A stretch of 64,000 nt of DNA, taken from NCBI GenBank assembly GCA_001804815.1, contig MHBI01000088.1:12224-76223 (forward strand), given 5' to 3'. Source of the DNA: Lentisphaerae bacterium GWF2_50_93 (lineage in GTDB: Bacteria; Verrucomicrobiota; Lentisphaeria; Victivallales; GWF2-50-93). Of this stretch, positions 48,045 through 48,124 are shown piece by piece; within the stretch, counting starts at the first letter, position 1, and each line of letters begins with the position of its first letter. Both the position numbers and the translations under genes were made by a program. The notes beneath the pieces were generated by a model. The model saw only the letters and a program-made list of their open reading frames with translations. It did not search any database and was not told the origin of the DNA.

Positions 48045-48124
48045 TGGATGATTGGATTGATGGATTGATGGGTTTTTGAAATTAAATCCAACAATCCAAA
48101 GATCCAGTAATCCAATAATCCAAA
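48045..48124. repeat. Minimal 8-bp-periodic GGAT hairpin element (arms only, no core)
   Basis: The sequence reads tggatgatt ggattgat ggattgat gggttttt gaaattaa atccaaca atccaaag atccagta atccaata atccaaat. GGAT-containing 8-mers on the left are mirrored by ATCC-containing 8-mers on the right. It lies directly between the IclR stop and the next gene's RBS. Confidence 0.85.

Follow-up and report, generated by a model that had tools for sequence, protein, structure and literature searches.

The MITEs of bacteria (miniature transposable elements with inverted repeats), such as the Correia/NEMIS, RUP, Nezha and ERIC-type elements, are noncoding sequences of about 200 bp with terminal inverted repeats and target-site duplications (TSDs). 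They occur as many dispersed intergenic copies, which are often cotranscribed, form hairpins and decay to fragments. Here we describe elements that share these properties in a stretch of 64,000 nucleotides from Lentisphaerae bacterium GWF2_50_93 (contig MHBI01000088.1, positions 12,224 to 76,223; the whole stretch is called the window). Their arms are arrays of octamers that begin with TGGAT on one side and end with ATCCA on the other, as in the hairpin at positions 48,045 to 48,124, and we refer to them as GGAT elements. In our assessment, these are probably full, broken and, in one case, miniaturized copies of a nonautonomous foldback-type MITE that circulates in Lentisphaeria/Victivallales. 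We assign it to the foldback type on the ground that its arms consist of tandem repeats whose number varies. A preliminary description of this DNA had proposed a new class of structured intergenic element, which overstates the case: foldback-type MITEs are already known, and it is the architecture of the arms that is unusual here. The role as a mobile element, which had been listed among several possibilities, is supported by defined termini, 9-bp TSDs and dispersed copies with unrelated flanks.

Arrays of the same unit were also found around genes of the PF05635 family in other phyla. PF05635 is the family of the open reading frame (ORF) in the 23S rRNA intervening sequences of Leptospira and Coxiella, which have inverted repeats at their boundaries and are cut out by RNase III (PMC4990558). 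The family resembles Avd, an accessory protein of diversity-generating retroelements (DGRs) (PMC10053308).

Element structure and target-site duplications

The full element is about 205 bp long (about 205-209 bp is the norm) and consists of CACTGCCGTCCCA, a TGGATKRN array, a core of about 100 bp, an NYMATCCA array and GTCATCC-N4-GGATGACTCTG. The left array contains four or five TGGAT-K-R-N octamers and ends in TGGGT, and the right array is composed of mirror-image N-Y-M-ATCCA octamers. The aligned consensus of the left half is CACTGCCGTCCCA followed by the units TGGATGAT TGGATGAC TGGATTGA TGGATGGT TGGGTATC and the core; after the core, the right half reads AAACCCAA TCATCCAT TCATCCAA CAATCCAT CCATCC and then GTCATCCTGTGGGATGACTCTG. 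The outer termini of the family are CACTGCCGTCCCA on the left and GGGATGACTCTG on the right. The ends form an imperfect inverted repeat about 50 nt in length (CAsnGnCnTCCCA..GGATGA, then octamers). Each starts with the outer CA, includes the array and reaches as far as the inner TGGGT; CAcTGcCgTCCCA-tGGATGA... at one end corresponds to CAgAGtCaTCCCAcaGGATGA... at the other, and the correspondence runs on through the octamers. The arms pair in the consensus fold of the alignment, terminus with terminus included, and the alignment shows little covariation. Copies measure 167-242 bp, and all six reading frames are broken by stop codons. An array is made of units that differ from one another and follow the same order in copies from unrelated loci; their number varies, with eight units at 7362-7425 and five elsewhere.

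The termini were recognized from copies outside the window, where sampled genome or metagenome loci are labeled with L-numbers (for example L005, L053 and L122). A scan of GTDB species representatives for four TGGAT units gave, among the matches listed, core-bearing homologues in other metagenome-assembled genomes (MAGs) of Victivallales, and these revealed conserved sequence beyond the array, CACTGCCGYCC(C/A)ATGGATGATTGGAT. A metagenome scan with the 27-nt left terminus yielded 15 loci. The left terminus CACTGCCGYCC(C/A)A is present in all 15 of these hits as well as in the further copies from two other Victivallales MAGs (L025 and L058). The contig of the window has one more complete copy, 1.5 kb upstream of the window, which belongs to the L025/L058 subfamily. 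Window copies are 83-90% identical to copies in the metagenome population genome Ga0209417, which has many copies of the MITE, lacks synteny with the window and has almost no other detectable DNA similarity to it, the exception being one repeat of about 265 bp. Similarity of the element to annotated plasmids or phages was not found. Rfam gave no gathering-level matches in the window, and at relaxed thresholds only eukaryotic microRNA-precursor and small nucleolar RNA models appeared, at 17-29 bits against cut-offs of 44-100.

Ten complete copies have both termini in common and unrelated flanks. The 9-mers flanking them match at 9, 9, 9, 8, 8, 8, 7, 6, 4 and 1 of nine positions, compared with about 2.5 of 9 by chance. 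The perfect pairs are AAGCAATTC, AATATAATA and CTTTCCATA, and the 9-mers differ between copies. Matches so far above the chance level indicate target-site duplication. The check for TSDs suggested in the preliminary description thus had a positive outcome, in that six of the ten complete copies carry a 9-bp TSD at 8 or 9 of 9 positions. Copies are located in divergent, convergent and codirectional intergenic DNA, and their flanks have an A+T content of 57-75%, compared with 44-55% for the whole locus.

The arms also have a polarity. In 25 of 26 neighboring pairs of arrays in opposite orientation, taken from the genome-scan matches listed and the window, the TGGAT array precedes the ATCCA array, and the one pair in reverse order is the junction of two adjacent elements. 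The same order, TGGAT then ATCCA, was observed at viral-contig loci (3 to 0). A polarity of 25:1 points to the oriented ends of one type of element, as the need to form a hairpin would not by itself impose it. Overall, the elements are small and noncoding, have terminal inverted repeats and TSDs of fixed length and variable sequence, and are dispersed with unrelated flanks over 15 metagenome loci, two other MAGs, six window sites and one site just upstream, as is characteristic of MITEs. Arms of variable tandem repeats between an outer and an inner motif, together with a 9-bp TSD, are characteristic of Foldback or Mutator-like elements.

The duplications, extra units and fragments observed show that insertion duplicates 9 bp of an AT-rich intergenic target, that array length drifts through tandem duplication of units, and that copies decay via truncation and nesting with other small repeats. 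According to the mechanism that we propose, mobilization would occur in trans by a DDE-type transposase that makes 9-bp staggered cuts and is encoded elsewhere in the genome. Enzymes of the IS4, ISAs1 and IS256 types give TSDs of 8-10 bp. The octamer arrays would serve as repeated subterminal sites for this enzyme or for an accessory protein, a role as recognition sites being suggested because the arms-only copy without outer termini keeps a TSD-like repeat. A copy inside an operon, like that at 48045, would be cotranscribed and fold into a long imperfect hairpin, which may incidentally alter mRNA processing or stability.

Several observations weigh against the interpretation as a MITE. No autonomous partner or transposase with the same ends was found by terminus searches in the window or the sampled loci, and none of the Lentisphaeria copies yielded an orthologous empty site; the closest relatives, L122 and L124, carry other elements at the junctions occupied by the window copies. 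The TSD is absent from two of the ten complete copies and from the extra copy upstream, and in the full copy of the window only 6 of 9 positions agree. No TSD signal came from arms-only hairpins of other phyla (TSD-like repeats in 4 of 24, versus 3 of 24 in the control). The repeat AAATGAAA flanking the hairpin at 48045 is a single, post hoc observation, and about 5% of screens of 28 pairs would give one by chance. Finally, a relative with 88%-identical neighboring proteins has a different short-period array at the same two intergenic positions. Such a different array at the same junctions could reflect selection that favors an element of some sort at the ends of genes, as opposed to colonization by chance.

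Octamer arrays and copies in the window

Tandem Repeats Finder reported period-8 arrays in the window at 7365-7420, 7526-7559, 28946-28968, 29085-29117, 48044-48071, 48085-48123, 50211-50248 and 50412-50444. The pattern TGGAYN3TGGAYN3TGGAY has 15 matches in the window versus 0.01 expected from shuffles, and a blind scan for any 5-mer present three times at periods of 6-12 found arrays solely at period 8, in the eight places listed. These results confirm the period-8 TGGAT arrays at every site named in the preliminary description, and a search of the window with the family profile returned exactly those sites and no further copies. Other features had likewise been described correctly: the GTCATCC-N4-GGATGAC hairpin is present in three copies (7560, 28922 and 50393, versus 0.01 expected in the window), two copies have a core between their arms, and all window copies are intergenic. 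The two core-bearing copies are mutually 81% identical over 192 nt in opposite orientation (7386-7577 and 28922-29113).

Some statements require revision. The arrays at 50205-50250 and 50412-50455 had been regarded as facing arms, but both are GGAT arrays on the + strand, and they are fragments of two different element ends. The 3-nt spacer of the unit is not free, with a unit consensus of TGGAT-[T/G]-[A/G]-N over 475 units of heterogeneous arrays among the matches listed. The junction with the GTAGTAGCGCATG repeat, described as conserved, consists of two separate families that adjoin each other, with spacers of about 17 nt versus about 33 nt at the two loci.

The coordinates of the window copies and their parts are given in Table 1. 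The complete copy at 7349-7581 exceeds the usual length through the duplication of three extra octamer units in its left array, and it is flanked by the 9-mers ATTAAATAT and ATTATTTTT, which agree at 6 of 9 positions. The fragment at 50207-50253 starts 6 nt past a stop codon and has the unit order of the left arm of the family. The short motif that interrupts the element at 34025-34042 belongs to a sequence CCGCCTTCGCTG(G/A)GAAGC that is also present at window 21472-21489 and at L139:10159-10191. The L139 occurrence lies in a 33-nt insertion within the left array of a metagenome MITE copy, and the motif may be a very small nested insert. Tiny dispersed repeats have been reported within cyanobacterial heptamer arrays, and the small motif in L139 is reminiscent of them.

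Table 1. Coordinates of GGAT elements, related cassettes and other repeats. Positions refer to the window unless a locus label is given.
Feature	Position	Strand	Basis or remark
Complete MITE copy, 233 bp	7349..7581	+	nhmmer E=1.4e-64; 83-90% identical to metagenome copies
Left outer terminus CACTGCCGCCCCA	7349..7361	+	matches conserved terminus
Left arm, eight units: TGTATGAT, TGGATGAT, TGGACGAT, TGGATGAT, TGGACGAT, TGGATTGA, TGGATGGT, TGGGTATC	7362..7425	+	
Noncoding core	7426..7521	+	conserved among copies, no ORF
Right arm, NNNATCCA-type units: AAACCCAT, TCATCCAT, TCATCCAT, TCGTCCAT, TCATCC	7522..7559	+	
Right terminal hairpin and terminus GTCATCTTGCGGGATGACTGTG	7560..7581	+	
Second core-bearing copy, without the CACTGCCG (left) terminus	28918..29117	-	nhmmer E=7e-60
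Right terminus of second copy	28918-28939		
Arrays of second copy	28940-28978, 29075-29117		
Core of second copy	28979-29074		
Left-end fragment, CACTGCCGTCCAA + TGGATGAT + TGGATGAC	33996..34024	+	profile E=1.5e-5
Short unrelated motif CCGCCTTCGCTGGGAAGC	34025..34042	+	interrupts element
Flanking direct repeat AAATGAAA, left copy	48034..48041		putative TSD
Arms-only hairpin element, outer termini absent	48043..48121	.	period-8 arrays and weak profile match
Left arm of hairpin: TGGATGAT, TGGATTGA, TGGATTGA, TGGGTTTT	48045-48076		
Loop of hairpin	48077-48083		
Right arm of hairpin, five NNNATCCA units	48084-48122		
Flanking direct repeat AAATGAAA, right copy	48122..48129		putative TSD
Left-arm fragment, no terminus, no core: TGGATGAG, TGGATTGA, TGGATGGT, TGGATTAT, TGGGGAAT	50207..50253	+	
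Right-end fragment, terminus + hairpin CAAAGTCATCCCACAGGATGAC + four or five units	50389..50449	-	nhmmer E=1.4e-15; ends at core boundary
PF05635 cassette	L053:6541-7235		
PF05635 cassette	L079:658-1255		
PF05635 cassettes	L140:1400-1945, 2640-3185		
PF05635 cassette	L150:1415-1950		
PF05635 cassette	L160:9935-10445		
PF05635 cassette	L161:9935-10465		
PF05635 cassette	L162:9950-10470		
MFP-to-ABC junction	L167:2497-2501		empty, 3-nt gap
MFP-to-ABC junction	L160:9147-9254		arms-only TGGAT hairpin
MFP-to-ABC junction	L140:1397-1949		hairpin + PF05635 gene
MFP-to-ABC junction	L164:2347-2500		different CCGAATT/TTCGG heptamer foldback
GAANNNN element	L122:2262-2306, 4455-4690		second copy is a foldback facing NNNNTTC heptamers
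REP-like copies	1970-1997, 28784-28811, 28878-28905, 50333-50366		
REP-like copies	21419-21447, 28513-28541, 28631-28659		
REP-like copies	2027-2099, 5673-5745, 56795-56867		

Upstream stop codons and downstream start codons are located within array units, and several ORFs extend into the arrays. The stop codon frequency of the units is not enriched (0.48 observed versus 0.45 expected from positional composition). Other functions of the octamers were considered and rejected. The idea of a CsrA sponge with repeated GGA was dropped, because the complementary arm masks most of the GGA runs and solo arrays favor neither strand with respect to transcription. Comparison with DnaA boxes (TTATCCACA resembling NNATCCANN) gives matches at 5 of 9 positions, and the 8-bp period would make the boxes overlap, so this candidate was rejected on reasoning alone. 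A two-tetrad G-quadruplex from GG every 8 nt is unlikely given loops of 6 nt and the competing complementary arm. For a relay of mini-ORFs through UGAUG overlaps in AUGGAUUGA units, the spacers are too variable to be conserved. No R'/R'' core sites of an integron attC were seen by eye, and the neighbors are not cassette genes. The view that the elements are not REP/BIME (repetitive extragenic palindromic sequences and bacterial interspersed mosaic elements), ERIC or CRISPR sequences was borne out: there is no GTAG and TSDs are present, unlike in REP/BIME, and an array with a period of 8 bp and no spacers is not a CRISPR array, in which direct repeats of 23-50 nt alternate with unique spacers of similar length.

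The arms-only hairpin at 48045

The hairpin at 48045 begins directly after the stop codon (48042-48044) of a gene for an IclR-family protein. Its end is separated by 6 nt from the Shine-Dalgarno sequence belonging to the following gene, which encodes an Fe-S protein. An identical copy of the IclR-family protein (47256-48044) is encoded on DPCG01000084.1 (MAG GCA_003516325.1), and it is also present in a groundwater metagenome assembly. The arms of the hairpin match the MITE arms unit for unit, the right arm being 85% identical to 29075-29113, and the family profile detects them weakly (E = 0.002-0.02). The loop sequence TGGGTTT-TTGAAA looks like two core boundaries joined after an internal deletion. 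Both ends of the hairpin are hugged by an exact 8-nt repeat, AAATGAAA, the sole repeat of at least 8 nt among 28 facing pairs, with a control frequency of 0.002 per pair. We interpret the repeats as probably a TSD of 9 bp in which 8 of 9 positions agree, a single observation made post hoc, and the element is probably a miniaturized insertion. The ancestral junction before insertion is predicted to have read ...AAAATGAAAAGGAGTTAAGAAATG. If AAATGAAA is a TSD, then an element of little more than arrays was still able to transpose, and the arrays would be the part that the machinery recognizes.

The RNA of this hairpin has a predicted minimum free energy of -34.3 kcal/mol (z = -6.1). The terminator role that the preliminary description listed among the possibilities was not supported, since there is no U-tract and copies occur in every gene orientation. 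No terminator-like site was detected at any GGAT hairpin between 47000 and 51000, where the only good terminator hit, 50289-50312, belongs to another repeat family.

TGGAT arrays and PF05635 cassettes in other phyla

Heterogeneous TGGAT arrays are present, among the matches listed, in Verrucomicrobiota, Lentisphaerota, Planctomycetota, Acidobacteriota, Ignavibacteriae and several unclassified MAGs. Pure arrays of identical units, from cyanobacteria, Bacteroidota and others, look like ordinary simple-sequence repeats. A different arrangement was observed in L005:35-215, from an uncultured Lentisphaeria MAG, in which three octamer arrays follow one another head to tail, composed of repeated ACGGACAG, then ATCCAATC, then AGCCAATC.

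In L053, two arms bracket a gene of PF05635/TIGR02436 ('23S rRNA intervening-sequence' or four-helix-bundle protein). The same was observed for all eight independent insertions of a 'MEYTKRR' subfamily of PF05635 (L053, L079, two in L140, L150, L160, L161 and L162), each with a TGGAT array on the 5' side and an ATCCA array on the 3' side. Often, a full TGGAT/ATCCA hairpin precedes the PF05635 gene and a second ATCCA array overlaps the last codons of the ORF, giving array-encoded C-terminal tails such as ...LPTNPSIHQSINPPIQ. Tails resembling translated arrays are found in 62 of 120 PF05635 cluster representatives. Cassettes with PF05635 between the arms occur in Verrucomicrobiota, Ignavibacteriae and Flavobacteriales. 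They are inserted exactly between cistrons, for example in macAB-like operons and between the genes for 2-hydroxyacyl-CoA dehydratase and its activator, with the upstream stop and downstream start codons in or beside array units. An IS4-type transposase near the cassette in L162 was considered as a partner of the GGAT elements and rejected, its ends being unrelated.

Among related Verrucomicrobiia, the junction between the genes for the membrane fusion protein (MFP) and the ATP-binding cassette (ABC) ATPase of macAB-like operons shows presence/absence polymorphism (ABC ATPase 86% identical). The four states observed are listed in Table 1, and the ABC-to-permease and permease-to-permease junctions vary likewise. 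Array elements with other units occupy equivalent positions elsewhere. L122, the orthologue of window 47.2-50.5 kb with a neighboring protein 88% identical, has a dispersed GAANNNN heptamer element at both of the junctions that carry TGGAT arrays in the window; L124, an 81% relative, has CACAGAG arrays facing CTCTGTG; and L164 has CCGAANN and GTCGAGN foldbacks at equivalent junctions.

Neither the window nor any of the sampled Lentisphaeria loci yielded a PF05635 gene, and the MITE core has no PF05635 signal. Around the verrucomicrobial cassettes there is no TSD, and the MITE outer termini are also absent there. The link between cassettes and MITE is therefore an architectural resemblance and not demonstrated descent. 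TGGAT arrays exist in viral contigs, and none was linked to PF05635 in 1.05 Mb.

We consider it possible, but doubtful, that inverted pairs of TGGATKRN arrays mark a class of foldback cassettes that crosses phyla, with the window elements as members without cargo; carriers of such pairs have so far been observed in Verrucomicrobiota, Lentisphaerota, Planctomycetota, Ignavibacteriae, Flavobacteriales and Acidobacteriota. If so, the intervening-sequence protein would be part of a mobile element in which the arms serve as its sites of recognition or processing. The PF05635 protein would then bind the arrays, which typically have four or five units, or RNase III would excise the cassette from polycistronic mRNA. 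Avd, the DGR relative of PF05635, is a pentameric nucleic-acid binder. Sister elements with GAANNNN, CCGAANN, GTCGAGN and CACAGAG units would fall into the same class, and units whose length is not divisible by three would offer stop and start codons in all three frames at any point of insertion.

Other repeats in the window

Among the genes of the window are those for RHS-repeat proteins and giant surface proteins as well as for IclR regulators and Fe-S proteins; neither a transposase gene nor rRNA was found there. Nearly every intergenic region of the window has some small repeat, including REP-like families with GTAG or CTAC beside a palindrome (GTAGTAGCGCATGTTTGCGCG; GTAGGTACGAGCTTCAGCCTGTACC; GTATGTCGGGTTTTAACCCGAC...GGCGGTTTAAAAACCGCCCTAC; Table 1). 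Some of these adjoin MITE ends, and the window contains no gene for a REP-associated tyrosine transposase (RAYT). A further family, containing GCCGACCTGGAGGTCGGC, is present at 28831-28881, 47104-47154 and 50265-50320. It twice adjoins the CGCGCAAACATGCGCTACTAC repeat and a MITE right end, and a T-run follows its copy at 50289-50312, which scores as terminator-like.

The repeat of about 265 bp shared with Ga0209417 is a second MITE-like element (window 3320-3584, 87.5% identical to L128:3947-4208), with inverted arms at 3370-3426 and 3496-3552 that contain GGGGCTTCAGCCCCTG. About six tandem copies of a 24-bp repeat (4856-5003) lie in frame within an ORF for a SASA-family esterase (3579-5228, - strand) and encode SQSLNHQI. 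The repeat has an 8-bp subperiod (ATCTCCCA ATCTCTAA ATCACCAG), and its peptide is similar to the tails that arrays encode in PF05635 proteins. Between two assemblies of one sample, the copy number differs by exactly three (72 bp), which indicates either a variable-number repeat or an assembly collapse. A direct repeat of 146 bp, 97% identical (5404-5549 and 6963-7108), flanks a xylose-isomerase-like TIM-barrel gene (5809-6795). Three tandem paralogous RHS-repeat proteins of about 1,590 amino acids (29219-33982, 34204-38973 and 39119-43945; 60-80% DNA identity in blocks) are followed by a 987-amino acid PPC/RHS-domain protein, and the MITE fragment at 33996 lies in the first gap between the paralogues.

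Alternative explanations

Two alternatives concern what the hairpins do or where they come from. The arms-only hairpin, and perhaps the whole family, might be a solo derivative, without cargo, of an intervening-sequence-like PF05635 cassette. Such a cassette would consist of a TGGAT array, in some cases a proximal ATCCA array, the PF05635 gene and a distal ATCCA array, and recombination between the direct ATCCA arrays would delete the gene. The bracketing of all eight 'MEYTKRR' insertions by arrays of the same polarity, the array-like C-terminal tails of about half the cluster representatives (62 of 120) and the empty, arms-only and gene-bearing states of the MFP-to-ABC junction in L167, L160 and L140, respectively, are all consistent with this, and the window hairpin at 48045 aligns unit for unit with the junction hairpins of the macAB type in L160 and L140. 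We nevertheless regard this origin as rather unlikely, because neither the window nor any sampled Lentisphaeria locus has a PF05635 gene, the MITE core holds no remnant of one, and the verrucomicrobial cassettes have neither the MITE outer termini nor a TSD. In addition, arrays of GAANNNN, CCGAANN, GTCGAGN and CACAGAG make the same foldback without PF05635, so that the shared architecture could be a general property and not a sign of common descent. Alternatively, the hairpins could be primarily cis-acting RNA elements (REP-type mRNA stabilizers, RNase III sites or cistron insulators) selected at gene ends, with mobility secondary or absent. The element at 48045 fills the junction between the IclR and Fe-S protein genes, from the nucleotide after the stop codon to 6 nt before the Shine-Dalgarno sequence, and its predicted fold is strong. 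Three arrays start 1-26 nt past stop codons, a different array element occupies the same two junctions in the 88%-identity relative, and verrucomicrobial operon hairpins are placed exactly between stop and start codons; moreover, 23S rRNA intervening sequences bearing PF05635 are excised by RNase III at the inverted-repeat stem (PMC4990558). However, full copies are also located in divergent and convergent intergenic regions, solo arrays have no strand preference relative to transcription (about 14 versus 9), and the hairpins lack U-tract terminators. Complementarity of the spacers is weakly above that of shuffled spacers (z from -2.2 to +1.6), and compensatory spacer changes between the arms are weak and inconsistent. 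Many window copies are truncated, and half an element cannot form a hairpin. The TSDs show that copies were made by insertion and not by evolution in situ. A primary RNA function is thus improbable. For the copies inside operons, an RNA-regulatory role is conceivable, and the hairpin may affect mRNA stability or processing as a side effect.

The other alternatives deny the arrays the identity of an element or assign them to a DNA-binding protein. Double-stranded operator arrays for a regulator, for example the neighboring IclR-family proteins, would agree with the presence of two arrays flanking IclR-family genes and with a conserved 7-nt unit, TGGATKR, of half-site size. Yet the same element lies beside unrelated genes in several genomes, the 8-bp period sets successive sites on different faces of the helix, and TGGAT arrays are missing from the orthologous IclR locus of L122, which makes operators a very improbable explanation. 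Simple-sequence repeats that arose in place by replication slippage are the least credible of the explanations considered. Unit number does vary between copies, pure arrays of TGGATGGG, TGGATTGT and similar identical units are present in cyanobacteria, Bacteroidota and other groups, and intergenic heptamer arrays of unknown function have been documented (PMC4679880, PMC4692102). Slippage does not account for heterogeneous units in an order that is conserved between copies at unrelated loci, for conserved nonrepetitive termini and core, for 9-bp TSDs or for the 25:1 polarity of the arms, and it is largely refuted by the TSDs and by the conservation of unit order, termini and core.

Comparison with known systems

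A foldback-type MITE thus accords best with the window elements, and its comparison with described systems shows where they depart from precedent. In bacterial MITEs, the arm is a simple inverted repeat. By contrast, the arms of GGAT elements are composite, with an asymmetric outer motif, a variable run of TGGATKRN and an inner TGGGT. REP/BIME sequences, which are associated with RAYT proteins, are likewise intergenic, palindromic and clustered with other repeats. They differ from GGAT elements, which have no GTAG, are about 200 bp long instead of 20-40 nt and have 9-bp TSDs, which are not made by mobilization of the HUH/RAYT type.

Short tandem repeats in Cyanobacteria and Bacteroidota, among others, namely the STRR heptamers, TAACTGA (PMC4679880) and GGGNATC (PMC4692102), also have units of 7-8 nt that are not a multiple of three and are intergenic, often no more than tens of nt away from a stop or start codon. 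Their units are identical and in one orientation, without termini, core or TSD, whereas GGAT elements are heterogeneous, bounded and arranged in inverted pairs. The 23S rRNA intervening sequences (PMC4990558) are similar in being selfish inserts in a transcribed unit with inverted repeats that form a stem, and their sites of insertion are helix 25 or 45 of 23S rRNA. Unlike these, the GGAT elements of the window have no ORF and lie between protein-coding genes, in a window without rRNA, and their octamer arrays contrast with the simple complementary sequence of intervening-sequence arms, for example the 28-bp stem in Coxiella.

A MITE in an uncultured bacterium is ordinary. Octamer-array arms and the bracketing of PF05635 genes are not, as far as the searchable literature shows, and a search by sequence string and keyword found no description of composite octamer-array arms in bacterial MITEs. 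With known ends and a 9-bp TSD, the family can be masked and used as a source of strain markers in Lentisphaeria/Victivallales. This is of practical value, as the arrays break assemblies, extend or shorten gene calls and can pass for regulatory RNAs. The PF05635 bracketing provides a testable handle on the spread of intervening-sequence/PF05635 genes and on the purpose of 7-8-nt intergenic tandem repeats.

The eukaryotic Foldback/Mutator elements, such as Drosophila FB and Meloidogyne Tm1 (PMC3169594), combine asymmetric outer motifs, variable tandem repeats and an inner motif in the same manner. As in GGAT elements, their arms are unequal in length, their TSDs measure 9 bp, and MITE-like derivatives without cargo exist beside gene-bearing forms. 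They differ in their eukaryotic hosts, in units of 13-15 bp or 10-31 bp, in arms of kilobase length and in the use of a Mutator-superfamily transposase. The likeness, drawn by analogy, is architectural only, and in this sense Foldback/Mutator elements are the closest architectural precedent for the GGAT MITE.

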